64,000 bases of DNA from an uncultured Bacilli bacterium (GTDB lineage: Bacteria > Bacillota_I > Bacilli_A > RFN20 > CAG-449): NCBI GenBank assembly GCA_947588815.1, contig CANQAG010000006.1, positions 24,830 to 88,829 of the forward strand. Reading direction: 5' to 3'. Under the pieces are notes generated by a model that was not told the DNA's origin, did not search any database, and saw only the letters and a program-made list of their open reading frames with translations. Within the stretch, counting starts at the first letter, position 1; each line of letters begins with the position of its first letter. Made by a program: the position numbers and the translations under genes. Below, in pieces: positions 3,442 to 41,806 of this stretch.

Positions 3442-3488
3442 AACTACCCTCCTATTTTCATTTTATTTTTATGTATCATATCATAGAG

Positions 3489-4376: not shown

Positions 4377-6202
4377 ATCGCAGTCCTTTTAAACATCTTT
4401 TCAATGTCATACTTTTTAAAACGCACAATCGTCGGTCGTCCATGAGGACAACATGTCGGATTTTTACATTTAAACAATTGATCAATCAACTGTTTCATTT
4501 CAAATAAATTAAGTCGATCATTAGCTTTTATTGAGGCCTTACAAGCCATCGTAGCTATCACATGTTTTCTTAAAGAAATTAAATCTATTTTTTCTTTTCC
4601 AAGCACTTGATCGATTAATTCTAAAATATAAGAATCATCTTTTTCTTCTCGCAAGAAAAGCGGAATTCTAGATACCTTCAAAGTATTAGTACCAAACAAT
4701 TCAATCGTTAATCCGATGTCCTCTAAAAGTTTAAAATGCCTTTCATTTAATCGCATGGCATCGCTTGGATTAAGATTTACAATAATCGGAAACAATGGCG
4801 TGCATGTCTCAATATTTGAATTTAAAATCTCTTGGTATTTTTCATAATTGATTCTCTCGTTTGCGGCATGTTGATCAATCAAATAAAATCCGTCCGGCGC
4901 ACTGCAAACAATGTACGTATTTAAGATTTGACCAAGTGGAGTAATCTCGTTTTTTTCTTCAATATCTACTTTTCGTTCTTCTTTAACTTCTATTTCTTTA
5001 AAGAGTTCTTTAGCTTCCGGTAATTGTTCATCGAAGTCTTCAAAATTAATCTTAATCGGTGCATTCTCTTCTATTTTTTCTTTTTTTGGCTCAGTAGCTT
5101 GATGTTGATTAGAAACCGTTGGACGAACGATATTTTCTTTAAACGGAACTTCAATTTGCTCAAACATCGGCATCGTCGATACTTTTTCCGTCGCTTTGAT
5201 ATTGACTTCTTGAATGTGATTTAAATTTTTAAGTTCTTCAGAAATCGCTTTTTCAAGAGCGGTGTAAAGATTATTTTCATTGGATAGACGGACTTCTTTT
5301 TTCGTGGGATGGACATTAACGTCTACTAAAGCATAGTCAACTTTAATATCCAGCACTACAAACGGAAATTTAGAGTTAAATATATAATCACTGTATCCAT
5401 CGATAATCGCCTTTTGAATTTTAGGCATATACACACTTCTTTGATTTAATAGTGTAATCATGTAATAGCGATTAGATTTTGCTATTTCAGGTAATCCTAG
5501 GTATCCTGTAACTTCAAATTCATAAGTGGAAAAAGAAATCGGTATCATCTTTTTAGCGGCATCATAGCCATAAATATTTGCGATAACTTCTAATAATTTA
5601 CCATTTCCGTTAGTGGCAAAAGATAAACGATCATCAAAATATAGCGAAAAAGCCACGTCGCTTCTAGCCATTGCTAAACGTTGCATCACTTCAAGGATTG
5701 AGGAGTTTTCGGTAGTATCCGATTTTAGATATTTTAAACGTGCCGGGGTATTAAAAAACAGCTCTTCAATCGTAAAAGTAGTTCCTTTTATTAAACTCGC
5801 GTCTTCCACAGTGACATTTTCATCTTCGATAGTTACTTTTGTTCCTACGCCTTTTCCGTCAGATGTGGTCATCGTCACTTTAGAAACCGCAGCGATTGAC
5901 GCTAATGCCTCGCCCCTAAAACCCATCGTTTTGATGTTAAAAAGATCTCTTTCATTATATAGTTTGCTAGATGCATGACGCTTAAAAGCTAGAATTGCAT
6001 CTTCTCGATCCATTCCGCTTCCATTATCGCTAACAATAATCTTATCGCGTCCGGCCCCATATATCATCACTTTGATTTTCGTGCTACCAGCATCCAAAGA
6101 ATTTTCAACCAATTCTTTTACGACACTTGAAGGCCGTTCGATAACTTCTCCAGCAGCGATCATATTGGCAAGTTTATGATCCATCACTTTAATTACGCTC
6201 AT
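4373..6202 (-). CDS. mutL: DNA mismatch repair endonuclease MutL
   Basis: IAAGEVIERP, GFRGEALASI, DQHAANER, CPHGRP. Confidence 0.97.
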   Translation of the reverse strand: MSVIKVMDHKLANMIAAGEVIERPSSVVKELVENSLDAGSTKIKVMIYGAGRDKIIVSDNGSGMDREDAILAFKRHASSKLYNERDLFNIKTMGFRGEALASIAAVSKVTMTTSDGKGVGTKVTIEDENVTVEDASLIKGTTFTIEELFFNTPARLKYLKSDTTENSSILEVMQRLAMARSDVAFSLYFDDRLSFATNGNGKLLEVIANIYGYDAAKKMIPISFSTYEFEVTGYLGLPEIAKSNRYYMITLLNQRSVYMPKIQKAIIDGYSDYIFNSKFPFVVLDIKVDYALVDVNVHPTKKEVRLSNENNLYTALEKAISEELKNLNHIQEVNIKATEKVSTMPMFEQIEVPFKENIVRPTVSNQHQATEPKKEKIEENAPIKINFEDFDEQLPEAKELFKEIEVKEERKVDIEEKNEITPLGQILNTYIVCSAPDGFYLIDQHAANERINYEKYQEILNSNIETCTPLFPIIVNLNPSDAMRLNERHFKLLEDIGLTIELFGTNTLKVSRIPLFLREEKDDSYILELIDQVLGKEKIDLISLRKHVIATMACKASIKANDRLNLFEMKQLIDQLFKCKNPTCCPHGRPTIVRFKKYDIEKMFKRTAI

Positions 6203-6205
6203 AAC

Positions 6206-8725: not shown

Positions 8726-8801
8726 ACTACTACCTCATACTGCAATTTTTATTATAACAATTTTAAGGATGTTTTTCGAGATAAAAAACATACTTAGAAA
8801 A

Positions 8802-9314
8802 TTACTTATCTTCGAGATAATTAGGATTTACATTCATTAAAATTTCTTCGTCGATTGAAATATCTTCTTTATAATCATCGGCACAGTTTACTACTAGAAT
8901 CGCTTCCGCGAAACAATCGACTAAATAAAGGCTTTCGATTTTTAAATTGACAACCCCATTGCTTTCTAATTCCATCTTGCTGCAAGTCGGATAATGAGAA
9001 ACATAAACTTTTATAAAACGCTCTTCTGAAATTGTTTTTAAATCCCGATACACCATGGTAAATGGTTCTTCAAATTCAATCGTCTCATTGTAAACCGATG
9101 ACTTTTGATCATGATTGGAAGCGTACCATAATTGAATATCAAAAGAACCTTTTAAAGTAATCTTCCCTTGCGATTCAATGGTTTCATATTTAAGGTTGAT
9201 AATCCAGCAACCTAACGTTTTAGAAATATCCTCATCAATATAAATGCGTTTATTAATGATACTGGAAAGTTTTCCTTTACCAATTAAAGTTTTCGCGGCG
9301 ATTTCACGATACAT
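8802..9314 (-). CDS. cotE: Outer spore coat morphogenetic protein CotE
   Basis: MYREI..K..IGKG, LGCWIIN, G.FDIQLWY resemble CotE; conserved position between ricA/ymcA and mutS. Confidence 0.85.
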   Translation of the reverse strand: MYREIAAKTLIGKGKLSSIINKRIYIDEDISKTLGCWIINLKYETIESQGKITLKGSFDIQLWYASNHDQKSSVYNETIEFEEPFTMVYRDLKTISEERFIKVYVSHYPTCSKMELESNGVVNLKIESLYLVDCFAEAILVVNCADDYKEDISIDEEILMNVNPNYLEDK

Positions 9315-9333
9315 AAAAAAATCCTCCTCTACT

Positions 9334-9362
9334 AATATATGAGAAGGATACCTTTTTATTTC
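9334..9362 (-). promoter_or_regulatory. sigmaE/sigmaK-like promoter of cotE
   Basis: AAATAAA-13nt-CATATATT followed by SD GAGGAGG. Confidence 0.5.
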
Positions 9363-9670
9363 AAAGCCTGTTGCAACTTTTCTAAAAGGAGCATTACTTC
9401 CTCGCGTTCTAAATAAAAGTTTACAATCAAGGGGTTTTCATCGTAACTTTTTTTTAATTCGAGATATTTTTGGCGATTAATTTGATAATTTTTCTCATCG
9501 TTGATCGCTAAAGCCGTCTTTTTTTGCCACTTTTTTATTTCTATTTCCAACATGTTCAATTCAGAACTCTCAAGAATCATTTTCTTCAATTCTAAAAAAC
9601 GGATAACTGCTGGATTATCAAAAAAAGTTTTGATAAATTCGTCTAAATCATTTTTTAATTTTTCATTCAT
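9356..9670 (-). CDS. YlbF/YmcA (RicA-like) family regulator
   Basis: Short helical protein with NPAV..F and NPLIV.F motifs, in the ymcA position between miaB and cotE. Confidence 0.7.
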   Translation of the reverse strand: MNEKLKNDLDEFIKTFFDNPAVIRFLELKKMILESSELNMLEIEIKKWQKKTALAINDEKNYQINRQKYLELKKSYDENPLIVNFYLEREEVMLLLEKLQQALK

Positions 9671-11111
9671 CGCTTACCAATTCTCCGATTAAAGAAAATG
9701 TATGTGACTCCAAAATTTTAACTTTTACAATTTTACCGATTAAATCTTTGGATCCTTTAAAGTTGACGAGTTTCATAGTTTCAGTATAACCACTTAAAAT
9801 ATCATCTCTCTTTTTAGAAGTTCCCTCAACTAAAACATCATAGACGTTATTTATATAGCGTTTTGCTCTTTCTTCCGCTTCTTGTTCAACCACTTTGACC
9901 AAGCGATCAAATCTTCTTTTTTTCTCTTCCATCGAAACGTTATCTTCCATTTTAGCTGCAGGGGTTCCTACACGTGGAGAATAGATAAAAGTAAAGGCAC
10001 TATCAAAGTGACAATATTGAACCATCTTTAAAGTTTCTTCAAAATCGGCTTCACTTTCATTGGGAAAACCGACAATAATATCCGTCGTTAAAGCGACATC
10101 CTTAATAAGACTTTTCAGTTCATCGACTAATTGGCGATATTGAAAAGCAGTGTATCTTCTTCCCATTCTGCGTAACACATCGTCACTACCCGATTGAAGC
10201 GGAAGATGAATACATGGCATGATATTTTTATATTTAGCGATCACTTCAAACATCTCTTTGGAAAAATCCCACGGATGTGAAGTCGTAAAACGAAGTCGTG
10301 CAATACCGGTCTTAGCTACTAATTCTAAAAGTTTAGCAAAGTTTAAATTTGAATCCAGATCTTTACCATATGCATTGACATTTTGACCTAAAAGAGTAAT
10401 TTCTTGATAACCATTATCAACAAGATTCTGGCATTCATTTAAAATATCGGCCACGCGACGACTTCTTTGCTTGCCACGGGTATATGGAACAATGCAATAA
10501 GTGCAAAACTTATCGCATCCGTACATGATATTTACAAAGGCTTTAAAGCGATCACTTCGCGCCAAAGGAATTCCTTCAATCACTTCGCCTTCTTTTGACA
10601 AAACTTCAATTACACGTTTTTCATCAAAAACCACTTCGTCTAAAAGTTGTGGTAAGCGAAAGATATTGTGGGTCCCAAAAACCAAATCAACTTGAGGATA
10701 TGATTTTTTTACTTGCTCGACGATATGAGTTTGTTGCACCATGCATCCGCATAAAGCGATAATTGCTCCCGGATTAATGTCTTTCAAACGTTTCAAAGAA
10801 CCGATTTCTCCAAAAACTTTATCTTCGGCGTTCTCTCTTACCGCACAAGTATTTAAAATCAATAAATCCGACTTTAAAGGATCGTCTACAGGCACAAAAC
10901 CCAGTTCTTGAAGAATCCCTTCAATCGCTTCAGAGTCTAAAACATTAGCTTGACAACCATATGTTCTAATAAAATATTTACGATTTTTGGCAAACTCTAA
11001 CAATCGTGAAGAATAAGTGATCTCTTCATGAATAATTTTAGTTGCTTCCTTGCTACGTTTAGCCGCTTCTTTTAAAGAAGGCAAGCTGTGCTCCTTTATT
11101 TGCTTCTTCAT
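9663..11111 (-). CDS. miaB: tRNA methylthiotransferase MiaB
   Basis: TYGCQAN, NTCAVRENAE, radical SAM GCDKFCTYC, C-terminal TRAM domain. Confidence 0.96.
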   Translation of the reverse strand: MKKQIKEHSLPSLKEAAKRSKEATKIIHEEITYSSRLLEFAKNRKYFIRTYGCQANVLDSEAIEGILQELGFVPVDDPLKSDLLILNTCAVRENAEDKVFGEIGSLKRLKDINPGAIIALCGCMVQQTHIVEQVKKSYPQVDLVFGTHNIFRLPQLLDEVVFDEKRVIEVLSKEGEVIEGIPLARSDRFKAFVNIMYGCDKFCTYCIVPYTRGKQRSRRVADILNECQNLVDNGYQEITLLGQNVNAYGKDLDSNLNFAKLLELVAKTGIARLRFTTSHPWDFSKEMFEVIAKYKNIMPCIHLPLQSGSDDVLRRMGRRYTAFQYRQLVDELKSLIKDVALTTDIIVGFPNESEADFEETLKMVQYCHFDSAFTFIYSPRVGTPAAKMEDNVSMEEKKRRFDRLVKVVEQEAEERAKRYINNVYDVLVEGTSKKRDDILSGYTETMKLVNFKGSKDLIGKIVKVKILESHTFSLIGELVSDE

Positions 11112-30877: not shown

Positions 30878-31532
30878 CTATTTATCCCAAATGTTTACAT
30901 CGGTTAGATAGTCTTGTAATCCAATCACTACATTGTATTCATTATCTTTGAATCGCACTTCAAACCATCTATGCGGCGGTGTTTCCTCCCACATCTTTTC
31001 CTCTACAAAAACATATTTTTCATCTTTGACATTTAAATGCTCACCATTTATATATTTTTCTTTTGCTTCATCATAAAGTGTATTAATTTTTTCACCTGTA
31101 CCTAGCAAATTATTACAGCAAAAATCAGTTACATCAATAATGATATTCATATAATTCTGTGGAATATTGAATGCCTCTTCTTCAGTCGCTAATTTATAAA
31201 TTAAGCCAAAAAGAATGTGACTATCAGCAGTAGATCTACAATTAAAACTATAATCATAGAATAATGTTAACTCATAGAAAAGTGACTCAGTAACATAGTA
31301 TTTTGCCATATAAAATTTAGTATATGGGTCATTTACTTTCTCTGTATATTCTTTTTTACATAACATCATTCTTTTGCAACGTGTTTTCAATCTCGTCAAA
31401 ATATTTAGGAAAATACTCATCAGCAAGTTCTAAAGTGTTTATATGCAAATCCTGCTGTACCCACTTATTAGTACAAGAAGTTAATAAAAGTACTGATGAA
31501 AGTAATGATAACATCCATGTTCTTTTTTTCAA
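30878..31532 (-). pseudogene. Frameshifted lipoprotein (candidate immunity protein)
   Basis: TTG 31532 gives MKKRTWMLSLLSSVLLLTSC (lipobox)...KNDVM-stop at 31356; protein-like sequence continues in another frame (KKEYTEKVNDPY...) to 30878. Confidence 0.65.
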
Positions 31533-31539
31533 ATTAGTT

Positions 31540-31550
31540 CCCCCCCCCCC
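31540..31550 (-). repeat. G11 homopolymer at the RBS position
   Basis: 11 consecutive C on plus strand, 7 nt upstream of the TTG start at 31532. Confidence 0.9.
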
Positions 31551-31656: not shown

Positions 31657-31748
31657 AGATTGAAATAATATCAGGTGAAATGAATCTTCCTATCTTTGAA
31701 TCATAATATCTACTATTTAGATAATATAGTCCTGTTTCAAATGATTTA
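31657..31748 (-). pseudogene. RHS core-end remnant behind TAAATCATTT|GA junction (copy 2)
   Basis: Encodes ETGLYYLNSRYYDSKIGRFISPDIISI-stop; 92-bp repeat of 34661-34752 with 4 mismatches by manual alignment. Confidence 0.85.
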
Positions 31749-31806
31749 ACTAAGCCAATGACTTTTGCTATTTTTCCCCAATTACATGTTAATGGATTAT
31801 ACCATC

Positions 31807-32116
31807 ATGTCTACTAATATAGAAAAAGCTGTTTATGACATCAAACAAAAAAAAGTTTTTATGGAAGAAATGATTAAAAATAATTATTTTTATAGGAGAA
31901 CCTTTCTATCATAAAAATGGTGAATCATGCATTTTAAAAACACCAAATGGATATGTTGAATATAATGGTGAAATTAAATCAATGCATGAAATTGCATCTA
32001 AAATGATGAATGGAAAACGACGAGTAAATGCATTTGATTATTTATATGTCATGAGAGATGGTAAACTTATTTCAATTGATGAAATAAGAAACAATTATAG
32101 AAAAACAATTGAATAA
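31807..32116 (+). pseudogene. C-terminal fragment of a CcrM/M.HinfI-like adenine DNA methyltransferase
   Basis: With one frameshift near 31890: IEKAVYDIKQKKVFMEEMIKNNYF/IGEPFYHKNGE...NGYVEYNGEIKSMHEIASKMM..RRVNAFDYLYVMRDGKLISIDEIRNNYR, resembling the SIHK..A...NGW.Y/W...LD.LR tail of GANTC methylases. Confidence 0.65.
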
Positions 32117-32205: not shown

Positions 32206-32667
32206 CTATTTTTCAATAATATTTTGAATTATATTTTTTATTTTTAAATAATCTTTATAAAGTACTTTAAATTGGATTTTTTCACCTGAATCTAATTTGA
32301 AAGTAACTAAACCACCTGCTTGTTGTTTATAGATAGGAACTATTGGTAGTGCATACCATTTACATACATTATATTCAGCATAAAAAATTTTAGTTATTGA
32401 ATATTTATTATTTAAAAATATAAATTCATCATTATTTAAAATTAATTCCTTTTTACTTTTATGATTTATTACATAGCAAAGTATTAAAGATAAAATCAAT
32501 AAAGATAAACAAATTATATAAGAAATTATAATTCCTTTATAAACAATAGCCTTTTGTTTTATAAACAAAGAAATAATTAAAATAATAGTTGTTAACAAAA
32601 AACCAATATTTGGAAATAGAATTGCTCCAACAATAGATTCAAATAAATTCAGTTTAATTTTAATCAT
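32206..32667 (-). CDS. Membrane protein, putative immunity for orphan RHS tip 2
   Basis: Two TM segments plus a small beta-rich tail; 15 nt downstream of the orphan tip. Confidence 0.65.
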   Translation of the reverse strand: MIKIKLNLFESIVGAILFPNIGFLLTTIILIISLFIKQKAIVYKGIIISYIICLSLLILSLILCYVINHKSKKELILNNDEFIFLNNKYSITKIFYAEYNVCKWYALPIVPIYKQQAGGLVTFKLDSGEKIQFKVLYKDYLKIKNIIQNIIEK

Positions 32668-32682
32668 TTTAAATCCCCATTT

Positions 32683-33383
32683 TTAAAATAAATTTTCAAA
32701 CATATAATTTGGTACATAATTTGCAATAAATCTGCCTGCTGCTCTTCCAAAGGTTGATAATAATGAATTTTTTGCTCCTACACCAACATTCCAAATTTTT
32801 GAACCTACAAACATACCTGCAGTAAAAAATGATAATAGACCTTTGCCTGTTTGTCCAATACCTTCAGAAATTCCTTTTAAAAAATTAAAGTTTTCTGTTT
32901 CTGAACCAGCAGCATGCATTGCATATCCGACAACTCCAGCTGTAAAGTTAGTAACTGCTGCAGTACTCATTAGTAAACCTATAGACTGGTATATAGTTAA
33001 TGCTTTCCCTGCAATAGTTAATGCTTGAAATGAGCCTTTTATTATACCACCTGCAACTCCACCTAAGCCATAAGCAAATCCAGTAGCAGCTCCTATAAGT
33101 GATGCCTTTCCTATTTCCCACCAATTCCATGTGCTTAAATCCCAGTTCCAATCACCACCGTTATAAGCTTGTTTTGCAGCTTCAACTCCGAATCCAAATG
33201 CCAAACCTACCCCAGTAGCAATTAGTAAGGTTAGAATAATTCCGAAATGTCCACTAGGATCAGCATACATTACAGGATTATTATAACAATAACAATATAA
33301 ATTTAAGCCATTAATTGATTCTGGATCTAAATATTTAATTGAATCAGGTGTAAGCCATCTACAAAGTTTTGGTAAATAATAAC
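32683..33383 (-). pseudogene. Orphan RHS C-terminal toxin module 2
   Basis: YYLPKLCRWLTPDSIKYLDPESINGLNLYCYCYNNPVMYADPSGHF then a Gly/Ala-rich hydrophobic tip; core part closely matches main rhs 35811-35946. Confidence 0.85.
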
Positions 33384-33430
33384 GTAAAAAATTTTAATAT
33401 AATCCTATTCGACTTTATTACTTTATTATT

Positions 33431-33919
33431 TTATTGTGACTCACTCATTATTATTTTAACATCATATATAAACCTTCTTATACTTCCACTTAAATATCTT
33501 GAACTAATAGAAATAGATTTATTTTTAGATTTAATAATTCTTTTATCTGATTTTTCAATTATTTTTGTTTCTTTATTTAGCATTATTTTTTTTGTGCCAA
33601 AAATATTCTTTTTAATCACCATATTATCTTTTAAATAAATACAAGTAGTAGCAACAATGCTAAATATAAATAATAAGCATAAATCATATGAAAATAGCAT
33701 AAGTAAAAACAACCAACTATATGATAATCCTTTTGTTGTTATGCAATATATAGTTAGTAAGCCAATTGTACTAGCAATTGTGATAACATAAAATGCAATT
33801 GAGATACCTTGACCAATGTATAATTCTTTCACAAAATATTTTTTTCTCCAAACTTTTACTATTAAAAAACTTAATACTATAGAAAACAAAATTGCTATAA
33901 TCAAAATATTATCTAACAT
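33431..33919 (-). CDS. Membrane protein, putative immunity for orphan RHS tip 1
   Basis: Three hydrophobic segments; ATG 33919 with SD AGGAG, 10 nt after the toxin stop. Confidence 0.65.
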   Translation of the reverse strand: MLDNILIIAILFSIVLSFLIVKVWRKKYFVKELYIGQGISIAFYVITIASTIGLLTIYCITTKGLSYSWLFLLMLFSYDLCLLFIFSIVATTCIYLKDNMVIKKNIFGTKKIMLNKETKIIEKSDKRIIKSKNKSISISSRYLSGSIRRFIYDVKIIMSESQ

Positions 33920-33929
33920 ATTTTTTCTC

Positions 33930-34742
33930 CTAGAAATAATCGTTAAACCAGTTGTATAATAATCCTTTACCAGCTGTTCCAAGTAATAATGCTATTCCAC
34001 CAAATGATAATGCTTTTATCAAAGCTTTCTCTGCTTGACTAATAACCATTTTATTCCATTGTTTAACTAAATTTTGACCTGATAGTCTTAAAGCATTTGC
34101 TGCAATACCAGCAGTTCTATATCCGCCAGTTACGACTTTTGTTAACACTTCATCATACAGTCCCGCAGCTCTAATAAATTTTGCAGTTTGTTTTGCACCA
34201 TTTAAATAGTTAGCATTTAATGCGCCTGCTCCTCCAATTAAGCCAACTAATGCTCCTAACCCCGTTGATAATCCAATATCTAGCCATGTTGATCCTTTAG
34301 AGAAATCACTTCCATTTATTAAATGTCCACCGACTGCACCTACAAATCCTAAACCTGCATTTGCAACAACTATTGCACCTAATCCTAAAGGTGACATGGA
34401 TAGTAAACCACTAGTTCCTCCTAAAATTGTATCTAAAGCAAGTTGCCCCCAATTAAAATCTTTCCAACTACATCCATTTGCTAAATATTGTCCTGCAACA
34501 TTGGAACATGCTCCAATTACAGCACCAACGATACCTCCTATAACCATTAATAATCCAATAGAAATTGCAAAATGTCCACTAGGATCAGCATTCATCACTG
34601 GATTATCCCCACAATACATGTAAAGATTTAGTCCGTTAATCTGTGCCGTTGTTTCATCTAAGATTGAAATAATATCAGGTGAAATGAATCTTCCCGTCTT
34701 TGGATCATAATATCTACTATTTAGATAATATAGTCCTGTCTC
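33930..34742 (-). pseudogene. Orphan RHS C-terminal toxin module 1
   Basis: Begins exactly at ETGLYYLNSRYYDPKTGRFISPDIISILDETTAQINGLNLYMYCGDNPVMNADPSGHF, then a Gly-rich hydrophobic tip. Confidence 0.88.
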
Positions 34743-34774
34743 AAATGATTTATATCGAGTATCCTCAACAAAGA

Positions 34775-34975
34775 TTAACCTATAAACTTATAGACAATCT
34801 TTATTTCTCTAAATTTTGTACCATTAATAACTTTCACATAACCTATTATTATATGTGAAATTAAATTATTAATGATTTCAGGAGTTAATTCTTCAAAGTC
34901 AATATATTTTCTTGCTATTTGTTTAAACATTTCTATATTAGCTTCAGTCTTATTCTCCTGAGTAATTTTTATTAA
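34775..34975 (-). pseudogene. 3' remnant of a large serine recombinase (DUF4368-like C-terminal domain, TnpX type)
   Basis: Manual translation EANIEMFKQIARKYIDFEELTPEIINNLISHIIIGYVKVINGTKFREIKIVYKFIG-stop fits the KY.D..ELTPE...I..I.V....G.R...I.I.Y.F.G tail of these recombinases; absent from the ORF track. Confidence 0.75.
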
Positions 34976-35015
34976 ACAGAAAAATCAATTATATTTTATT
35001 AATTTTTTTGCAAAA

Positions 35016-35279
35016 TCAATTATTTTTTTTGTGAAAATATTTATCATTTTTTTTTAATACTTTTTCACATCGTGGACATAATCCATCTTCATTTAATGGT
35101 AAAGGCTTAAAATATTTTTTTATAAAATACACTTCCAATGATCCATCTACAGTCGTGATTTTTTCAGGCATGTTTGGCTTATATCCTTTTTCATGACAAC
35201 ATATACATTCGTTAATCCATTTTTTAAATTTTGGAAAAGCATTTATATATTCTTCGCCTTCATTTCCGTTTCTTTTCAT
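35016..35279 (-). CDS. Putative cognate immunity protein of the full-length RHS toxin (two CxxC motifs)
   Basis: ATG overlaps the rhs stop (TAATG); CICC and CPRC motifs. Confidence 0.7.
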   Translation of the reverse strand: MKRNGNEGEEYINAFPKFKKWINECICCHEKGYKPNMPEKITTVDGSLEVYFIKKYFKPLPLNEDGLCPRCEKVLKKNDKYFHKKNN

Positions 35280-38200
35280 TACAACTTCCCCCATTTCTCT
35301 AAAATTTCTTTTAATAAATTAATTAACTTTTTTAAATTATCGTGAGTACTATAAGGATATTTATCAATTTCTTTATGCAATCTTTGCCATAAATCCCTAT
35401 TCTTAATATCTAATTGTCTCATTGCCTCTGCCCATTGCTTGTTTTGGTATTTGTTATTTGGCAAGCCGCCTTTGAAAAACATATAAGTGACACCAAATAT
35501 TCCTGCAACATCTAATATTTGCGCACCAGTTATAGTTAAAGTCATAGATCCAGTAGTTGCAAGCATCATTGTTCCTGTTGATGTTTGTGCCAAAGCAAAG
35601 CCAGTTGGAATTGTTGCTGAAAAACTCATTCCAGCAAAAGCTCCTACTCCTGCACCGATTATTCCACCTACCACTGTAGCACCTAAATAGTCATACCATT
35701 CTACACTACCATTAAATATTTTTCCATCATCTTTATAATCTATATATGCAGCCACTCCAAAACCAATGGCAGCTCCAATTATAGCTCCAATGATTAATGC
35801 AGTAATGGCAAAATGTCCACTAGGATCTACGTACATCACTGGATTATTATAACAATAACAATATAAATTTAAGCCATTAATAGATTCTGGGTCTAAATAT
35901 TCAATTGAATCAGGTGTTAACCATCTACATAGTTCTGGTGAATAATATCTAGAGTTGCAATAGAAGAGTCCTGTTTCCTCATCATAATAGTATCCACGAT
36001 ATCTAAATGGGTTAAGAGTTGCAATTCCATCTACATCATTAGTAATTATGTGATTACCATAAGCATCATATGCATATCCCCCTACTTCATTTCCTTCATC
36101 ATCGTATATAGCAATAATATCACCTTGTATATTTCTTAAGTAGATATATTCTTTGCTATTACTACCATCATTATAATTGAAACCAATCAATTTGTTAAGA
36201 GCATATTTGTATGTCAATATCCCATTTTTGGTAATTGCCCTTAGTATTCTTGTTCCATCGACGATGAATGAAGTTTCAACATCATTAACAATCTTATTTC
36301 TTCTTATACCATTTGCATCATAAAAATAATAAGCCTCCACTTCTTCACTCATGAAACTTAATAAATTTCCATTACTTTCCCATTCTAACAAATTATCCAT
36401 ATAAGTAATTGGACGTCCCATTTTATCATATTCAAACTGTTTGCCATTAAAGAATAGTAATTGGTCATTCCATCCATCACATTCATAAGTATATTCATCT
36501 ACTTTTGGTGAATACAATTTATCTTCTAGAGTATATTCATAAGTTTTCTTTAAAAGAATATTTCCTGCACTATCGTACTTATAGGTAATGGTCTTATTTA
36601 ATTTTGGATTATCCTCTCTTACAAGACGATTTAATTTATCGTATTGATATCTTGTTAAACTATCATCAGCATCGATTTCAATGATATTACCACTTTCATC
36701 ATAATTATATTTGCTTGTCTCAGTCATATAAATTTTAATAGGTATTAGTTTGTTCTCTTCAGATATAGACTCTTTTCTTACAATGACTTTGGTTCGATCC
36801 TCAGCAACTAAATCCAAACTATTTTCATCTTGTTGCAAATAACTATATTCGTGGCACAACTCTATTTTTTGTGAAGAATAGCTACTACTTTTATCTATTT
36901 CAATATTTTGATGCTTTACTCTATTTAGAACATCATAATCATAATTAATTGTAAATAGTCCATTAATATCTAATGTCGTTATTCTATTATCTTCATCATA
37001 TTGATACTCAGTTTGTAAAACATCACCATCTTGGAGGCTGATTTCTTCTTTACTTAAACGATTCTTACTATCATACATAAATGCGCGGTAGAAATGTACA
37101 TCATCATTTATAGTCTTGGTAAAATCTGTAACATTATTATAATCATCATATGATGTTTCTAAAACTTCTGTAAAAGTATCTTGAGAATCACGATTTGTCT
37201 TATTTGAGATAACTTTTACTAAATTTTCGCAATCATATTCATAAACACTATCACCATAATATTGTGCACTATCAAAAGATGTTCTTCGTACCTTTCCCTT
37301 TTCATCAATTATTAAATCGACATAGTAACCATCCGAAGTAGTTGCCGTTGTTAACTTTCCATGATAAATTCCTAATTCTTCATTCTTATAATTGTCATTA
37401 TAAGTATTCCACACAAAATCATTGCCATTTAACTTAATATCAGTTTTTCTACCTCTCCCATCACAAGTATAATCTACTTTCATTCCATGATGTGATAAGG
37501 AAGTTAATAGTCCATAATTATAAGTAAACACAGTTGAGTTATTTACACCTGCAGAACTCGAAGAAATACTCAATAAATTCCCTGTGTTAAAGTCATAGGT
37601 ATAACATGTAGTTTCTCCATTTACTCCTTTAATTTTACTTTGAATATTTGTGTTTGGTAAATAAGTTACTTCTTCGGTAGGATAATTACCTTTTTGATCT
37701 TTTATTGATCCTTTTGATGATAATAATCTCCCATTTTCATCATACTCAATTTTTTCTACTTTCATCAAAGATGCATCTTTTTTGTTATAGATTCTCTTTT
37801 CGATACATCGTCCTTTATCATTATAGTAGTATTCTTCAACGTTTCCTTTACTATCTTCTACATTAGTAAGTTGTCTATCACTATTGTAACTGTAAATTGT
37901 AACAACTTCATCTCCATAAATGTTAGTATTAGTAACTTTTAAAGGAATATCATTTTCATTATAGTCTTCGTAAACTGTAGTATTAGTGCCATCTTGTTTT
38001 TTAATTAAATGATTTTCTTCATCATAAGTGTAAATTGTACCACTTTCAAGTTTAATTAACTCTGCTGATTTGAAGAAACTACCTTCTGACTCATCATAAG
38101 TATTACTTAAGGAAAATTGAATAGTAGTCGACAATTCTCTATCAATTACAATTGGTAAAATAACCGTTTGATTATAAACTTCTTGATAAACTAATTTAAA

Positions 38201-41200
38201 CTCTTCTATTTTTGTATCATTTTCGTTGGAAGAGATAACATTCACTTTAATATCGAATTTTGAGAGTGAAATATCTGCTTCATTCATTATTGATCCAAGA
38301 ACAAGCTTTATAGCAAGAAGATTAGAAATTGGGAGATCATTCTTAAATGTTGTGCGATACTTCGACAAATCAAACTCTTTAGTAGCAGTCACACCTGACA
38401 ATCCAAATTGTTCTAAAGTAGAAATGCTATTATCTGTTTTAAATTTTGCAGTATGTTTTACCAAGCCTTTTTCATAATGCACAATCTCTTCGTATTCATT
38501 ATCTTTAATATGTAGCAATCTTCCTAAATTATCAAATTGGTATGTAATTGTTTTTTTATAAAAACTATCATAAATAGTTGTAATATTATTAATACCAAAA
38601 GTATATTGCTCTTCACTAATAGTTTTTTGACTATCTAAAGCACTTATTTTTGAATTCGAATCTATTTTTCCTTCTAGACATTTTTGACAAACAAACAATT
38701 GATTATCAGTGTTAAGGTCAAGTTCAATTGTCTCTAATAGGGGGCTAGTAAATGATATAATATTGTTCTCATAAATAAATGAAGAAGTTTTACTATCGTT
38801 ATATTTCACAGAGACTAAGCAATTATTATCATCGTATTCGAATTTTGTTTTTCTTCCACTACAATCGATAAGGGATTTTAATAGTCCAGATTCTTTATCA
38901 TAATTAAATTTAACCGTTTCTACTCCAGAGGTTACATAAAGAAGTTTTCCTTTATTTTCATCATCGAATCCATAATCAATATTAATTTCATTTTCAAATG
39001 ATCCTAGAATTGAAATTAATCTTCCGTAACCATCAAATCCTAAAGCATTTCCATCTTTATCAACAATAAAATCATTAGCTTTTCTCATTTGTTCTTCAAT
39101 TAGTGAATCTTTTTTATTTTGCAAATCTTTTAGCTGTTGATTATAATTAGCAAGAGTATTTAGAATATTAAAATAATCAGCACTTTGGCTTTCAATTCTA
39201 GTAGATAACGTAGTAATAGACCCCTCTAAACTTAAATCTTGAATTTCTTTTGCCAACTCTCGAGTTTTTGCTAGTAGAAAAGAATTTATGCGATAAGTGT
39301 TATCTGTAAACCTTTGTAATCCACTATTAAAAGCTGACACCATCGTAGCCGGCAACTTTTGTGCGTTCTCATTATTTCCAGGATTATATTCGCTATTAAC
39401 AATCCCAAAAGATTCTGCATATGCCTTTAAAGTAGAAAAATCCGTTGTTCCATCAGCTTTTGCCATATATTCCAAATATCTATCACCACATCTGTTGAAA
39501 AAGATTTTTTTTGCGTTTTGAATATCTTCTGATAGCGTATCAAAAACTTTATTATTTTGCATATATTGTTTCTGCTTTGCGTATAAATTTAAAGTATTTT
39601 CAATATTCTTTAAGGTTGCTAAGTTAGCATAAAATGAAATTGTTTTAGAAAGTTCTAAATTCTTAATGTATGATTCTACTTGTTTAATCTGTAAATTTAA
39701 ATTAGTGATATCTTCATTTACATAAAGGTCTATTACCTCATCCTCTTCAGAAGATTCTTCAAGAGAATAAATCACTATCGATTCATTTTGTACTGATTCA
39801 TCTGCATTACCACCAAAACTAGAACACTTATAATTTACAGAATAAGTCCCATTGTTATTTAAAATGACATCATTTACAAATTCAATATCGATACTAACTG
39901 GTTGATTGGTAGGACCAACAAGATCACCAAAACTATTTCTCTTAACGCTTTTCGGTTCAACCCATACTTTAGCACCAGTATTCGGGTTATAATAGAAAAA
40001 TGATAAATGATTTTGGTTACTATCAACATCTACTTCTAATGATCCGAAATTTTCATATTTTAAATAATATCTTTTCCTTTTTTTGTTTGATTTAAAAGAA
40101 GTTAAATTCATTCCAGAAATATAGGATAGTCCCTCATCGTTTTTAATTTCCACATTTACTTCTTGTATATCACCATCGTAATCCATAATTTTTAGTTTTT
40201 GGTCACTATCTAAAAATATATCTTCTCGATTAACAAATATTTTTTCTCCATTTACTAAATAATACCAACGTTCATGTAACTTATGTGCAAAACCATCTCC
40301 ATCAATATAAGTCACATCTTTGCTTCCCAAAACTTGATTAAAAGTGTCAGACTTAATTAAATACTGATGAAGATTTGTTTTCCATCCTTTGCCCATATAA
40401 GCTGGTGTAATTTCAAGTTTCTTGTCAGCGTAAACAGAAGAATCAAATACATGATTAATTGTATATGATAATGTCTTAAGATCTATTTTAGCGTCTCTAT
40501 GAACATGTCTAAAGTTTCCGTTTTTAAGATTTATAAAAGTTGTACCTGCTCTTCCTAATGAATAATAATTCTCAGGAATTTTTTGAATATCTTCTTCATC
40601 TAGATATTCAATATTAAGTTTTGGTCTATACTTTTCTTCTGCTAATAAGGTGCATACATTTACGTAAAATGAATTATAATTAGTTCTTCCGGTGTATTTA
40701 AGTTCAATTTTCATTACATCTTCAGTGACAGAATTAAAACCATCAGTAATATCAATAAAATGTTCCCCCAAATAATCTTCCTTTTCAATTGTAAAAAGAG
40801 TTTTACCATCACAAATGGCGATAATTTTACTATTATCAGATATATTTTTATCTACTTTTTTAACATAAAATTTTAAGAATATCTTAGATAAATTGCTAAA
40901 ATTTTTGATAATTGTCGAGCGATTAATTCTAAAGTTAATGATACTAAAAAATAATCCACCTACATTTTGATAACCAACAAGATTTAGTTTTCTATTGTCA
41001 CTATATAAAGTTCCAGTCATTTCAAAAACATCTGAAACTACCTCAATAGTCGGATCAATAATAACCGGTAAAACTCTTTTATCATCATTAATCCAAGAAG
41101 CATCTGCTATTAAGGTTAGGTTTAGTACTTCTCCATCTTGTTCAATATCATAGAAACAATCAAATGATGTCTTTTCACTACTATCTTTCATATATGGGCT

Positions 41201-41806
41201 TAAAATTCTATAGATTATCTTGTCGTTATCACAAAGTTCAATACATTTTGTTTCTTCGTTATATCGTGGTGTTAAACTTCCGATATTTAAACTAAAGTCA
41301 TAACTATATTCATCTTGTTTTTCTCTTACGATAATATTTTCTTTGATTCCATGAGAATGTACTTCATAGTTTAAATCTAATCCTTTTTCAAAGTTTTCAA
41401 AACTAATGGATGACTTCTCTTTCTTACTAGAAATTACTTTTCCTCTTACTTTAGAGATCTTTCCAATTTTTGATTTCTTTCCCAAAAAGTTTAAAGATAC
41501 TTCATGATTATCTTTGCTTAATTTTACAAGTTCTTTTTCATCTAGTGATTTAGCAAAATAACTCGTGAATTTCCCTTTTGTTGTTTTGAATCCATTTTCA
41601 TCTTCTTGTAATTCAAAATTACCATCTCCATTATCAATTCCGAAAGTAATTGTTTTTACTTTACCTTTAAGAGTAGAATTTGGTTTTTTAATTTTATTTT
41701 CTTTACTATTTGATGTTTCTTTTTGATTAGACACATGGGAAGCTTGCTTATTTACTTTCATTTTTTCTTCTTTTAACTCTTCTTTCGATACAACTATTTT
41801 TTTCAT
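35279..41806 (-). CDS. RHS/YD-repeat polymorphic toxin (WapA-like), 2175 aa
   Basis: Many YD repeats, core NPFRYRGYYYDEETGLFY...NNPVMYVDPSG, variable C-terminus; WapA-like N-terminal IKENI/PYMKD/VIIDPT region; no Sec signal peptide. Confidence 0.93.
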   Translation of the reverse strand: MKKIVVSKEELKEEKMKVNKQASHVSNQKETSNSKENKIKKPNSTLKGKVKTITFGIDNGDGNFELQEDENGFKTTKGKFTSYFAKSLDEKELVKLSKDNHEVSLNFLGKKSKIGKISKVRGKVISSKKEKSSISFENFEKGLDLNYEVHSHGIKENIIVREKQDEYSYDFSLNIGSLTPRYNEETKCIELCDNDKIIYRILSPYMKDSSEKTSFDCFYDIEQDGEVLNLTLIADASWINDDKRVLPVIIDPTIEVVSDVFEMTGTLYSDNRKLNLVGYQNVGGLFFSIINFRINRSTIIKNFSNLSKIFLKFYVKKVDKNISDNSKIIAICDGKTLFTIEKEDYLGEHFIDITDGFNSVTEDVMKIELKYTGRTNYNSFYVNVCTLLAEEKYRPKLNIEYLDEEDIQKIPENYYSLGRAGTTFINLKNGNFRHVHRDAKIDLKTLSYTINHVFDSSVYADKKLEITPAYMGKGWKTNLHQYLIKSDTFNQVLGSKDVTYIDGDGFAHKLHERWYYLVNGEKIFVNREDIFLDSDQKLKIMDYDGDIQEVNVEIKNDEGLSYISGMNLTSFKSNKKRKRYYLKYENFGSLEVDVDSNQNHLSFFYYNPNTGAKVWVEPKSVKRNSFGDLVGPTNQPVSIDIEFVNDVILNNNGTYSVNYKCSSFGGNADESVQNESIVIYSLEESSEEDEVIDLYVNEDITNLNLQIKQVESYIKNLELSKTISFYANLATLKNIENTLNLYAKQKQYMQNNKVFDTLSEDIQNAKKIFFNRCGDRYLEYMAKADGTTDFSTLKAYAESFGIVNSEYNPGNNENAQKLPATMVSAFNSGLQRFTDNTYRINSFLLAKTRELAKEIQDLSLEGSITTLSTRIESQSADYFNILNTLANYNQQLKDLQNKKDSLIEEQMRKANDFIVDKDGNALGFDGYGRLISILGSFENEINIDYGFDDENKGKLLYVTSGVETVKFNYDKESGLLKSLIDCSGRKTKFEYDDNNCLVSVKYNDSKTSSFIYENNIISFTSPLLETIELDLNTDNQLFVCQKCLEGKIDSNSKISALDSQKTISEEQYTFGINNITTIYDSFYKKTITYQFDNLGRLLHIKDNEYEEIVHYEKGLVKHTAKFKTDNSISTLEQFGLSGVTATKEFDLSKYRTTFKNDLPISNLLAIKLVLGSIMNEADISLSKFDIKVNVISSNENDTKIEEFKLVYQEVYNQTVILPIVIDRELSTTIQFSLSNTYDESEGSFFKSAELIKLESGTIYTYDEENHLIKKQDGTNTTVYEDYNENDIPLKVTNTNIYGDEVVTIYSYNSDRQLTNVEDSKGNVEEYYYNDKGRCIEKRIYNKKDASLMKVEKIEYDENGRLLSSKGSIKDQKGNYPTEEVTYLPNTNIQSKIKGVNGETTCYTYDFNTGNLLSISSSSAGVNNSTVFTYNYGLLTSLSHHGMKVDYTCDGRGRKTDIKLNGNDFVWNTYNDNYKNEELGIYHGKLTTATTSDGYYVDLIIDEKGKVRRTSFDSAQYYGDSVYEYDCENLVKVISNKTNRDSQDTFTEVLETSYDDYNNVTDFTKTINDDVHFYRAFMYDSKNRLSKEEISLQDGDVLQTEYQYDEDNRITTLDINGLFTINYDYDVLNRVKHQNIEIDKSSSYSSQKIELCHEYSYLQQDENSLDLVAEDRTKVIVRKESISEENKLIPIKIYMTETSKYNYDESGNIIEIDADDSLTRYQYDKLNRLVREDNPKLNKTITYKYDSAGNILLKKTYEYTLEDKLYSPKVDEYTYECDGWNDQLLFFNGKQFEYDKMGRPITYMDNLLEWESNGNLLSFMSEEVEAYYFYDANGIRRNKIVNDVETSFIVDGTRILRAITKNGILTYKYALNKLIGFNYNDGSNSKEYIYLRNIQGDIIAIYDDEGNEVGGYAYDAYGNHIITNDVDGIATLNPFRYRGYYYDEETGLFYCNSRYYSPELCRWLTPDSIEYLDPESINGLNLYCYCYNNPVMYVDPSGHFAITALIIGAIIGAAIGFGVAAYIDYKDDGKIFNGSVEWYDYLGATVVGGIIGAGVGAFAGMSFSATIPTGFALAQTSTGTMMLATTGSMTLTITGAQILDVAGIFGVTYMFFKGGLPNNKYQNKQWAEAMRQLDIKNRDLWQRLHKEIDKYPYSTHDNLKKLINLLKEILEKWGKL

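Follow-up and report, generated by a model that had tools for sequence, protein, structure and literature searches.

The 64,000-nucleotide stretch of DNA from an uncultured Bacilli bacterium analysed here (the window) most probably carries the fossil remains of a small integrative cassette driven by a TndX/TnpX-type large serine recombinase; judging from sequence comparisons, we put the probability of this reading at roughly 0.8. The arrangement set out in an earlier note on this DNA, i.e. an RHS core, its current tip, a presumed immunity gene, a recombinase-like remnant, a short non-coding stretch and an orphan tip, with GA dinucleotides at 35976-35977 and 34741-34742, was confirmed.

In the proposed mechanism, the attP site of the element would be an imperfect palindrome of ~50 bp with a GA dinucleotide at its centre. 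The non-coding DNA directly behind the recombinase gene would form the right half-arm of attP, and the left half-arm would be coding, namely the first codons (E-T-x-L-F-x-V-S-S...) of the element-borne toxin tip. The partner site of attP would be the most conserved motif of the RHS core end (..YYYDx/ETG.., with the boundary before E), more precisely the GA of its Glu codon; the recombinase would pair the two sites and catalyse cutting and rejoining at GA, which would insert the circular element. The resident RHS shell would gain the incoming tip by in-frame fusion, followed by a small ORF (presumably for immunity), by cargo, if any, and by the gene of the recombinase. The old tip and its immunity gene would be moved downstream as an orphan starting at the Glu codon, with the right arm of the element ahead of it, and repeated insertions would build the orphan arrays. 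The ancestor of the window locus would have consisted of the core joined to an orphan-1-type tip, the toxin of the present tip would have arrived with the element, and about 470 recombinase codons would have been deleted from the inserted copy; with their loss the insertion would have become fixed.

Anatomy of the locus and of the recombinase remnant

The features of the locus, all of them on the minus strand, are listed in Table 1. The RHS ORF matched the RHS repeat and the RHS-associated core model TIGR03696 (residues 1913-1998, 77.4 bits), as well as the YD repeat model. The full gene covers TIGR03696 positions 1-76, and the genome has no other full copy; orphan 1 aligns with positions 24-76 and orphan 2 with positions 27-76. 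The present tip and both orphans contain the DPSGH motif (DPxG type) ahead of a variable C-terminal toxin region. At the left junction, which reads ...TAT GAT GAG / GA A ACA GGA..., the boundary falls just before GA (35977-35976); past GA, the reading frame of the core carries on into the present tip for 232 codons, with DPSGH 50 residues after the Glu. Profile searches revealed no family above threshold for the toxin regions of the present tip and the orphans; in Pfam, the present tip gave weak glycine-zipper matches only. The 92-aa ORF matched no family in Pfam or NCBIfam, and its putative role in immunity is deduced solely from its position. The 183-aa ORF co-occurs with the orphan-1-type toxin in three related loci (L083, L078, L079), and its immunity function is likewise presumed.

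Table 1. Features of the RHS locus, in window coordinates.
Feature	Position	Strand	Description
RHS shell and core, as far as the last codon ahead of the junction	35978..41806	(-)	part of ORF 35279..41806, 2175 aa
B arm of the attachment site	35978-36001	(-)	last 24 nt of the RHS core before GA
GA of Glu codon, left junction (attL)	35976..35977	(-)	probable crossover dinucleotide; alignment partner switches relative to G032
Present tip	35279..35975	(-)	rest of Glu codon, TGLFYCNS...DPSGH, glycine-zipper-rich toxin region, stop
92-aa ORF	35016..35294	(-)	two CxxC pairs; putative immunity gene of the present tip
3' remnant of large serine recombinase gene	34775..34984	(-)	69-codon stop-to-stop frame; homology from ~34963; stop 34775-34777
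Non-coding right end of the element	34743..34774	(-)	32 nt; follows the stop of the recombinase remnant
P arm	34743-34766	(-)	last 24 nt of the right end; outer 8-mer GAGGATAC
GA of Glu codon, right junction (attR)	34741..34742	(-)	G032 alignment resumes exactly at 34742
Orphan tip 1	33930..34740	(-)	ETGLYYLNS...DPSGH and toxin region; probable displaced former tip; open to 33930
183-aa ORF, membrane-protein-like	33431..33982	(-)	putative immunity gene of orphan 1
Orphan 2 and the 153-aa ORF behind it	32206..33393	(-)	orphan 2 proper 32683-33393
Duplicate of the right junction	31657..31748	(-)	92 nt, 96% identical to 34661-34752

A recombinase-like character had been proposed for positions 34775-34975. 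The frame containing them (34775-34984) matched DUF4368 (PF14287) with an E-value of 8.2e-17 (61.6 bits, profile positions 2-64 of 67), which bears the proposal out. Recombinases of nearly full length in two genomes (G068 and G008) share 83-84% identity with the remnant at their C-termini, and the closest intact relatives of the remnant are proteins of 538 aa with Resolvase, Recombinase, Zn-ribbon and DUF4368 domains; all four domains are also present in the intact relatives L039, L109 and L124. The L039 recombinase is 36.9% identical to the annotated TndX (NZ_KP345886.1) over 98% of its length, and its C-terminal 353 aa are 96% identical to the G068 relative, the tail of which is 84% identical to the remnant. 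The N-terminal Resolvase, Recombinase and zinc ribbon domains are absent from the window gene, of which the last 69 codons alone remain. Given the four domains of the intact relatives, this gene represents a remnant of a TnpX/TndX-type member and not a working recombinase; the copy in the window is fossil, a dead relic left by a small mobile cassette. It gave the sole DUF4368 match in the genome of the window (96.6% complete), in which no match to the Recombinase domain (PF07508) was found.

The segment between the two GA dinucleotides amounts to 1,235 bp and comprises the present tip, the 92-aa ORF, the last 69 recombinase codons and the right arm. The non-coding stretch that follows the stop codon of the remnant ends ...TATAAATCATTT, and past the GA of the right junction (34742-34741) the frame reads on as ETGLYYLNSRYYDP..., i.e. 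as orphan tip 1. Orphan 2 begins later, at ...RYY, with no arm ahead of it; the N-terminal part of the present tip has an 89% identical counterpart in orphan 2 (145 nt, 33237-33381). In the duplicate of the right junction, the final 10 nt of the P arm are kept, followed by GA and by 80 nt of a tip of the orphan-1 type; the DNA after the duplicate (31669-30834) is that which follows the attached tip in G032, a genome of the same genus.

The empty site and the junctions of related loci

An allele with the core fused directly to tip 1 had been predicted, and it was found, with a tip-1-type N-terminus, in G032, where no match to the recombinase remnant or to the arm was detected. The core of this empty site aligns with window positions 38062-35942 at 89% identity and then with positions 34742-34575 at 95%, the switch falling exactly at GA; relative to G032, the insertion is the whole GA-to-GA segment. 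The N-terminal 168 nt of orphan 1 are 95% identical to the core-attached tip of G032, and the B arm of the window shows one mismatch in 53 nt against this allele. In the three-way alignment, G032 has the structure B-GA-B', the attL of the window B-GA-x and its attR P-GA-B', so that attB, attL and attR are related by an exchange at one point, around GA. The base after GA differs (A in G032, G in the attR of the window).

The P arm of the window was also found in a second genome of the genus (G098; 100% identity over 54 nt) and in a rabbit-gut genome (L042), in the latter after the C-terminal part of a recombinase that shares 86% identity with the G068 query. The homologue of the 92-aa ORF in G098 occupies the same place and is 87% identical. 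G098 shows rearrangements.

The earlier note expected orphans beside homologous recombinases to begin at the Glu codon of ETG. This is the case in 58 of the 71 assessable related loci (20 of 25 genome loci and 38 of 46 metagenome loci; six more loci end too early and were left out), where a conserved arm of 24 nt comes after the recombinase, and then GA and an RHS tip that starts from the same codon. These positive loci represent 40 distinct junction contexts, and the identity of the recombinases ranges from 35 to 100%. The distance between the last recombinase codon and the Glu codon is 34-41 nt in 42 loci and ~1,061-1,065 nt in 13 loci with an intervening YhcG-type gene; in these, the arm keeps to the end of the element and not to the stop codon. 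The remnant of the window ends 35 nt from the Glu codon of orphan tip 1, which is the commonest value in related loci, and its junction therefore reflects more than chance. No RHS follows the recombinase in the remaining 13 of the 71 loci: six of them (L056, L111-L115) carry a single F2-type element, with non-RHS DNA after its right arm and GA, and the other seven are distant relatives. As a control, other DUF4368 loci of the same order were inspected, of which 3 of 27 adjoin an RHS tip.

At the 18 listed left junctions, the frame of the core passes through GA for 133-268 codons and a small ORF comes next. Junctions of the type right arm/GA/left-arm-type tip, indicative of serial insertion, were identified in L039, L044, L045, L048-50, L053 and L059, which suggests insertion beside earlier elements; tandem elements of different subfamilies also occur. 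Many of the related copies are frameshifted.

Intact small cassettes, composed of a tip, a small ORF and a recombinase gene, are 3,199 bp (L109, with a 547-aa recombinase), 3,364 bp (L118), 3,473 bp (L124) and 4,115 bp (L103) long, and bigger cassettes bear defence genes as well. When L039 was compared with the assembled contigs of four runs, the joints had sides of 20-38 nt within repeated tip sequence; neither a circle nor an excision product was observed. In a quick tree, all 24 RHS-abutting recombinases fell in a single clade of 32 members (SH-aLRT 99), six of them without RHS; this clade leaves out TndX and 14 recombinases without RHS.

Attachment arms and alternative histories

At the left ends of related loci, the first 24 nt of the tip repeat the right arm in inverted orientation, with co-variation of the two across three recombinase subfamilies (F1, F2 and F3). 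The reverse complement of the right arm matches the left arm at 15.2 (F1), 17.9 (F2) and 17.4 (F3) of 24 nt, as against 10.4-13.8 for pairings across subfamilies and 6.3 +/- 2.2 for shuffled arms. The dyad is centred on GA in all 12 elements (12-18 matches of 22, versus at most 11 at other offsets from -6 to +6), and in 7 of 10 F1-type left junctions the outer 8-mer recurs in the core arm 4 nt nearer to the centre. GA-R-AC is kept in all sites by coding, so conservation alone does not fix the crossover point; from the symmetry of the arms we infer that it lies at GA.

Of the 24 positions of the left arm of the window (to the right of GA 35977), 8 agree with the reverse-complemented right arm (3 of 12 in the outer half), which is near chance; the arms at the core junction of G098 pair at 17 of 24 (11 of 12 in the outer half). 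A non-cognate left arm of the FYCNS/FFCNS type is also present at L052:43 and L094:4120. As the left arm of the window is non-cognate, the first ~150 nt or all of the present tip may not be element-borne: gene conversion may have replaced the first ~150 nt, or the whole tip may predate the insertion. The earlier proposal that an element carrying tip, immunity gene and recombinase integrated at the core motif is supported: the checks on the homology of the remnant, on the start of adjacent orphans and on a directly fused allele all came out in its favour, and intact cassettes of this content exist. Caution is called for with regard to the left arm of the window.

The same arm leaves some room for a two-step history, which we consider unlikely, in which the element entered at the GA of a Glu codon and left its right arm and the remnant, the present tip and the 92-aa ORF not being its cargo. 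Either (a) the tip and the ORF were already there and the element entered a downstream orphan, or (b) the tip of the element was later replaced by homologous recombination among the conserved ETG..DPSGH regions. The FYCNS/YYCNS-type N-terminus is indeed a common native type on RHS tips of the genus (it was seen on the RHS of G098 contig 1 and on orphans), and in G098 the P arm of the window type precedes an FYCNS-type orphan. Toxins have been shuffled among N-terminal types elsewhere, as illustrated by an orphan-1-like toxin on an FWLSS N-terminus (L083) and by a tip behind the recombinase of L026 that bears a toxin 52% identical to that of the window; furthermore, orphan 2 and the 92-nt duplicate point to arm-independent recombination at the locus. 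However, the order of tip, small ORF, recombinase and arm in the window is exactly that of the intact minimal cassettes, and the entire segment between the GA dinucleotides is an insertion relative to G032. There is no second target stub or left arm between the 92-aa ORF and the remnant, and in G098 the last 48 toxin codons of the present tip and the small ORF recur directly beside the P arm that the window has.

Homologous recombination only, i.e. a RecA-type crossover in the conserved core with the remnant as a passenger from an unrelated decayed element, is already strongly disfavoured, and we regard it as very improbable. It is the model put forward for enterobacterial rhs by Jackson et al. 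in 2009 (available text of PMC2935791), and it agrees with orphan 2, which starts elsewhere and without an arm, and with a core stub in L047:6045. It does not account for the recurrence of the arm-GA-Glu codon junction across 40 contexts, for the arm that shifts along with the element end where cargo is inserted, for co-varying inverted repeats centred on GA, for the restriction to a specific recombinase clade or for the low control rate (3/27). Orphan 1 and the 58 related junctions display one start codon behind the arm, not breakpoints spread through the core. The contrast drawn in the earlier note between a site-specific route and homologous recombination therefore holds for these junctions, but not for the whole array: homologous recombination also shaped the orphans of the window (orphan 2, the 92-nt duplicate, the G098 rearrangements). 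Both processes occur, since orphan 2 and L047:6045 fit the displacement model.

Gin/Hin-type serine recombinases swap C-terminal gene segments by inversion, and several arm-GA sites are present in many arrays, but a shufflon-like resolvase or invertase reshuffling tips within one array, rather than a cassette integrase, is extremely improbable, as all sites found are in direct orientation on the coding strand, the enzymes, unlike the small invertases, are large serine recombinases with a Zn-ribbon and a coiled-coil region, near-identical recombinases (96-100% over the C-terminal 353 aa) and right arms adjoin different tips in different genomes, and an empty site exists.

Significance and relation to known systems

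Beyond the cassette fossil of the window, it seems an even bet that the whole large serine recombinase clade, from gut and digester Bacillota, constitutes a dedicated 'toxin-tip cassette' system. In such a system attP would be written in the first codons of the toxin tip, which would make every RHS gene with the ETG motif a landing pad. Each landing would re-arm the shell with a new pair of toxin and immunity genes, serial landings and not homologous recombination would be the main builders of the orphan arrays there, and excision between left and right junctions could restore the previous toxin. The same vehicles would ferry restriction-modification, Gabija-like and SIR2-HerA anti-phage systems, and would, if the reading is true, couple the spread of interbacterial weapons with that of phage defence.

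So far, homologous recombination via a hypothetical circle has served to explain how polymorphic toxins such as RHS gain tips and build up orphan arrays. No description of an RHS tip-swapping recombinase cassette was found in the full-text literature searched, which takes in few subscription journals, and recombinase-driven addition of RHS tips appears to be a so far undescribed route to toxin diversity. The recombinase clade, the arms, the crossover centre, the empty site and intact cassettes of 3.2 kb are now defined from sequence, which makes the question directly testable by a two-plasmid assay. The cassettes would offer a compact natural case of a site-specific recombinase with a coding attP, the product of which is an in-frame protein fusion, and hence a possible tool; they also tie the exchange of toxins to the mobility of genes for phage defence among uncultured gut Bacilli.

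The cassettes resemble elements of the Tn5397/Tn4451 family (TndX/TnpX) in the domain composition of the recombinase (Resolvase, Recombinase, Zn-ribbon, DUF4368) and in the location of its gene at the end of the element. TnpX and TndX cross over at GA. For TnpX, a 2-bp target site is given in the available text of PMC3158075. Unlike in those elements, the target here is one codon, in the ETG motif of the RHS core, and the left arm is coding sequence of a toxin tip, as a result of which insertion would create an in-frame gene fusion. The cassette recombinases also form a clade separate from TndX in the quick tree, and no resistance or conjugation genes were seen in the cassettes.

A pseudo-palindromic attP of ~2 x 24 nt around a central dinucleotide is shared with the serine integrases of A118/LI, phiC31 and Bxb1 (attP x attB -> attL + attR). 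The outer 8-mer lies approximately where the attP of the A118 family has its zinc-ribbon motif (positions 16-24), and the 4-nt shift in the core arm can be set beside the 5-bp shift of the motif reported for attB (both from the accessible part of PMC3783163). Unlike phage serine integrases, the cassettes are not parts of prophages (the smallest has 3.2 kb and three genes), and their insertion would give the target gene a different functional 3' end and would neither disrupt the gene nor restore it unchanged.

The Gin/Hin/Cin invertases and the R64 shufflon also swap a variable C-terminal part on a constant N-terminal part, in frame, and do so by inverting resident segments within one locus. 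The cassettes, in contrast, would bring in outside sequence by integration of a mobile element.

Integrase-like genes have repeatedly been found beside Rhs loci of bee-gut Snodgrassella and Gilliamella and were suggested to aid the capture of Rhs sequences (Steele et al. 2017, PMC5727410); that case concerns Gram-negative bacteria with T6SS, and the available text gives no recombinase class, attachment site, junction or mechanism. The rAID-1 arrays of Bacteroidales (Ross et al., bioRxiv 10.1101/471110) are likewise recombinase-linked, apparently actively acquiring gut arrays tied to interbacterial toxins. As described in the accessible part of that preprint, they differ in having a XerD-family tyrosine recombinase, integron-like intergenic repeats and immunity genes only, with no fusion of a toxin to a shell. 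An integron or rAID-1-like array was rejected for the window, as the recombinase is of the serine type and the repeats between orphans are right arms of elements.

The same outcome is reached in the displacement model of 2009 (Jackson et al., PMC2935791), in which, according to the available text, homologous recombination involves core fragments of variable length, a new tip joins the core, the old tip becomes a silent downstream orphan and arrays grow; a circular intermediate is postulated both there and in the cassette scheme. That text states that no integrase was known to accompany Rhs. Here, unlike in the 2009 model, one finds a dedicated recombinase and a junction fixed at one dinucleotide.

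Window locus and the empty site in a related genome

The window holds the only RHS locus found in its genome (1.33 Mb in 37 contigs, 96.6% complete), and each component that the earlier note had described there was recovered: the RHS core, the first GA, the present tip, a small ORF, a DUF4368 remnant, a non-coding arm, the second GA and an orphan tip (see the table). Read on the minus strand, the core ends in ...YRGYYYDE/ETGLFYCNSRYY, and its Glu codon opens with GA at 35977-35976. The frame of the present tip remains open for 232 codons past this left GA, with DPSGH placed 50 residues beyond the Glu and followed by a glycine-zipper-rich region. The same genome gave no second DUF4368 match, and the Recombinase domain was not found in it; what the locus shows is a dead copy. 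Orphan 2 and the 92-nt duplicate show that ordinary recombination also acts on this array.

Positions of the features in the window, and of elements and their parts in related loci
Feature	Position or locus	Strand	Remarks
RHS gene	35279..41806	minus	2175 aa; RHS repeats and RHS-associated core domain
92-aa ORF	35016-35294	minus	two CxxC pairs; without family match
Remnant	34775-34984	minus	69-codon open frame, DUF4368 domain, E 8.2e-17; ~30 nt past 92-aa ORF
Non-coding stretch	32 nt after remnant stop	minus	last 24 nt start GAGGATAC and end ...AAATCATTT
Orphan tip 1	from GA 34742-34741	minus	frame reads ETGLYYLNSRYYDP...; own DPSGH, toxin region, 183-aa ORF
Right-junction copy	31657-31748		92 nt: 10 nt arm, GA, 80 nt tip; 96% identical to 34661-34752
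Orphan 2	32683-33393		begins further along the motif, without preceding arm
Complete small element	L109		3,199 bp GA to GA; 254-codon tip, 129-aa ORF, 547-aa recombinase at 1642-3285
Complete small element	L118		3,364 bp; intact recombinase
Complete small element	L124		3,473 bp; intact recombinase at 2209-3825
Complete small element	L103		4,115 bp; intact recombinase
Anti-phage cargo	L035 4244-12034 (G008); L034 9388-12004 (G068); L076 6276-13048 (G098)		between tip module and recombinase
Tandem elements	L045 1034-2704 and 9419-11092; L044; L087		different subfamilies in one RHS locus
Conserved upstream block	L039 8640-9450; also L041, L035 (G008), L034 (G068), L084, L045, L104		
F2-type element, right end without RHS	L056 about 8260; L111-L115		
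Split recombinase genes	L036, L040, L047, L048, L051, L052, L053, L055, L056		
Recombinase genes listed against the split ones	L037, L038, L039, L041, L044, L045, L046, L054		

Three genomes of the same genus were searched with the window locus. The RHS core of G032, one of the three, matches window 38062-35942 (89%) and the alignment resumes at window 34742-34575 (95%), the switch of partner falling at the GA. This site differs from the left flank of the window by 1 mismatch in 53 nt and from the right flank by 3 in 76 nt, and the search returned no match in G032 to the remnant or the arm. Relative to this allele, the window contains an insert of 1,235 bp between the two GA dinucleotides, with the present tip at its left junction and the element arm at its right. 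An allele with the core fused directly to a tip of the orphan 1 type, which the earlier note had proposed to look for, was found, with the alignment switching at the GA.

Several small features were noted near the array. The 92-nt duplicate includes a 10-nt stub of the arm (31739-31748), and the module at 31669-30834 is present in three copies in G032. A run of 11 G (31540-31550, minus strand) lies 8 nt before the TTG start of a lipoprotein-like ORF (31356..31532; signal peptide, LTSC lipobox), and this homopolymer in the ribosome-binding region could be phase-variable. The opposite (plus) strand has, at 31762-32116, two overlapping frames of 50 and 80 codons that resemble a single gene broken by a frameshift; they lie between the 92-nt copy and the orphan 2 module, and neither matched a Pfam family.

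Recombinases and element ends in related loci

[quoted passage not shown] The close matches (83-84% identical) came from G068 and G008, where the genes are near-full-length large serine recombinases, both frameshifted. Each has a non-coding arm of the same kind behind it, succeeded by an RHS tip starting at the Glu codon. The arm stands directly behind the recombinase in G068 and behind an inserted YhcG-type nuclease gene in G008, so that it marks the end of the element and is not a 3' UTR of the recombinase. Intact members of the family comprise Resolvase, Recombinase, Zn-ribbon and DUF4368 domains, and one of them, encoded at L039 9446-11062, shares 36.9% identity with TndX across 98% of its length. 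A quick tree (SH-aLRT, midpoint root) was built from 47 recombinases, i.e. 65 recombinase ORFs minus 2 shorter than 490 aa and 16 near-identical rows. It placed all 24 RHS-abutting recombinases within one clade of 32 (SH-aLRT 99), which excludes the annotated TndX and 14 recombinases without an adjacent RHS. About half of the recombinase genes of the genome set are broken by frameshifts or stops, the others being intact (538-551 aa), which suggests that these genes are often inactivated after insertion, as in the window.

The junction survey covered 28 loci from a one-genome-per-species scan and 49 more from a metagenome scan; the ends of two metagenome contigs (L096, L097), which we take to resemble sequencing-adapter sequence, were left out. 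Under fixed criteria, a locus counted as assessable when 100 nt or more followed the recombinase match (71 loci; 6 end too early). An RHS tip follows the recombinase in 58 of these 71 (20/25 genome and 38/46 metagenome loci), representing 40 distinct junction contexts. In 42 loci, 34-41 nt separate the last recombinase codon from the Glu codon (35 in the window); in 13 loci having the YhcG-type gene the distance is approximately 1,061-1,065 nt. The 13 loci without an RHS tip are (i) six copies of one element of recombinase subfamily F2 (L056, L111-L115) and (ii) seven distant relatives (25-40% identity). On its left, this F2-type element joins an RHS core properly (L056:4763). On its right, non-RHS DNA comes after the arm and GA; either the orphan has been deleted or the target half is another one. 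As a control, other DUF4368 loci from the order-wide search were inspected, and 3 of 27 abut an RHS tip; these three represent further arm types. At least six types of arm exist. An exact-pattern scan of the metagenome contigs gave 0 matches to the right-arm subtype of the window. Elsewhere this subtype occurs only in L042, which lacks upstream DNA, and in the same-genus genome G098, and hence the loci compared offer no second left end for it.

Where enough upstream DNA was available, the first RHS site ahead of the recombinase proved to be a genuine core end (..Y[KR]GYYYDx). At 18 listed left junctions the core frame crosses the GA into a tip of 133-268 codons with a small ORF behind it. Counted rightwards from this left GA, the first 24 nt form an inverted repeat of the 24 nt that precede the right-end GA, and this repeat varies with the recombinase subfamily. 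Its outer 8-mers are GAGGATAC and GTATCCTC in F1 (GTATCCTC being read as ..V-S-S.. in the tip), GAGGTTAT and GTAACCTC in F2, and a third pair in F3. Mean arm complementarity within subfamilies is 15.2 (F1), 17.9 (F2) and 17.4 (F3) of 24 nt; pairings across subfamilies give 10.4-13.8 and shuffled arms 6.3 +/- 2.2. When the right arm was joined to the left arm in silico and the assumed 2-nt centre was slid from -6 to +6, dyad symmetry was highest at the GA in 12 of 12 elements (12-18 of 22, compared with at most 11 at other offsets). Judged from sequence, this anatomy is that of a putative serine-integrase attP, with two arms of ~24 nt around a central dinucleotide; unlike in such sites, one arm is here the coding sequence of the first eight codons of the tip.

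Base frequencies were less informative on the crossover point than the dyad test. On both junction types the Glu-Thr codons hold GA, +2 and +3 constant and +1 is variable, so that base frequencies do not place the crossover. The outer motif is shifted by 4 nt between arm and core in 7 of 10 F1-type left junctions, which is only suggestive because the Gly-Tyr codons at the core end dictate the shift. When Logan contigs from 4 of 24 runs were compared with L039:4000-12500, they contained joints (e.g. 5087 to 11107) with sides of only 20-38 nt. These joints lie in the repeated tip N-terminus and look like further RHS alleles present in the sample rather than excision products. Three of the four runs had high cover over the element interior and low or absent cover over parts of the L039 flanks and the tip toxin, a pattern to which we give no weight.

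Cassette content, cargo and later changes

Complete small elements with intact recombinases carry the cassette content proposed in the earlier note, i.e. a tip, a small ORF and the recombinase. Whether the present tip and the 92-aa ORF of the window arrived as cargo in this way bears on a two-step history, in which both have a past separate from that of the element. The left arm of the window (24 nt right of GA 35977; ETGLFYCNS) matches the reverse complement of its right arm at only 8 of 24 positions; L052 and L094 have the same left-arm type. RHS tips in this genus often carry the FYCNS N-terminal type, and toxin regions have clearly been exchanged between N-terminal types. This leaves two readings: either gene conversion overwrote the first ~150 nt of the tip once the element had inserted, or the tip and the 92-aa ORF have a separate history. 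We regard the two-step history as unlikely.

In G098 the core junction has a cognate left arm (17/24 and 11/12 against the right arm of the window) with a stop codon inside it. There follow (i) ORFs of 670 and 653 aa, matching the AlwI-type enzyme and D12 methyltransferase of G008 by size alone, (ii) SIR2-like and HerA-like ORFs, recognized by eye against the Pfam-tested pair of G068, (iii) an ORF resembling an HTH regulator, and (iv) the last 48 codons of the window toxin with a homologue of the 92-aa ORF (93% nucleotide identity). The recombinase is absent altogether, and next come the arm of the window (100% over 54 nt), GA and an orphan of the FYCNS type. We infer later decay, in which a second element landed on a window-like arrangement and a deletion followed.

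Larger elements with cargo measure 5.5-7.9 kb, and about 12 kb (by coordinates) in G008. In the latter, the RHS core reads in frame into a tip. Between this tip and the recombinase lie, in order, a small ORF, an AlwI-type restriction enzyme and D12 methyltransferase, an OLD-type ATPase with UvrD helicase (Gabija-like) and an HTH protein. The cargo of the larger elements includes AlwI-type enzyme with D12 methyltransferase, OLD-type ATPase/TOPRIM with UvrD (Gabija-like), and SIR2 with HerA; some also have a YhcG-type nuclease behind the recombinase.

Tandem elements, together with junctions at which an arm and GA meet an arm-type tip, show what would be insertion beside earlier elements. Many orphans are preceded by an arm whose translation reads KDNQDYDV; elements with recombinases of the same subfamily as that of L045 at 1034 have it as their right arm. 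Ahead of the recombinase gene and a small ORF (53 aa in one subfamily) stands a conserved non-coding block. The block holds 18 nt that do not vary across divergent elements, with a short hairpin and a GGATAC core also seen in attachment arms. An Rfam scan assigned it to no family (one match lay far below threshold), and the block may be a regulatory site or an operator of the recombinase.

Comparison with known systems

The interpretation put forward in the earlier note, a serine-recombinase cassette that would enter at the Glu codon of the RHS core and leave the old tip downstream as an orphan, is supported by the comparative evidence, and at the level of the family the proposed mechanism is well supported by the sequences compared. 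A full-text literature search, with most subscription journals outside its coverage, found no paper combining serine recombinases with Rhs orphans. Among the matches listed, judged by title and start of abstract, none was relevant for polymorphic toxins with serine recombinases, or for polymorphic toxins with site-specific recombination and immunity; the sole paper with all the terms Rhs, attB and serine integrase names Rhs only in a reference. A prior description is possible.

The outcome resembles the C-terminal displacement of enterobacterial rhs genes, where a new tip is placed on the shell and the old one is shunted downstream; that displacement was put down to homologous recombination with a hypothetical circle (PMC2935791). 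Rhs-associated integrase-like genes were later reported from bee-gut bacteria, the relevant passages giving no mechanism (PMC5727410), and the rAID-1 arrays of Bacteroidales hold immunity genes alone, alongside a tyrosine recombinase of the XerD type (10.1101/471110). The outer motif of the present arms sits about where the zinc-ribbon motif does in A118-family attP sites (PMC3783163). In recombinase class and style of element the system is like the Tn5397/Tn4451 family, from which it differs in that the target is one codon of a protein-family motif, one attP arm is coding and the fusion is in frame. What is new compared with TndX/TnpX-type elements is the target logic and its consequence, and the tip-cassette system offers a concrete, testable and site-specific answer to how RHS tips are exchanged.
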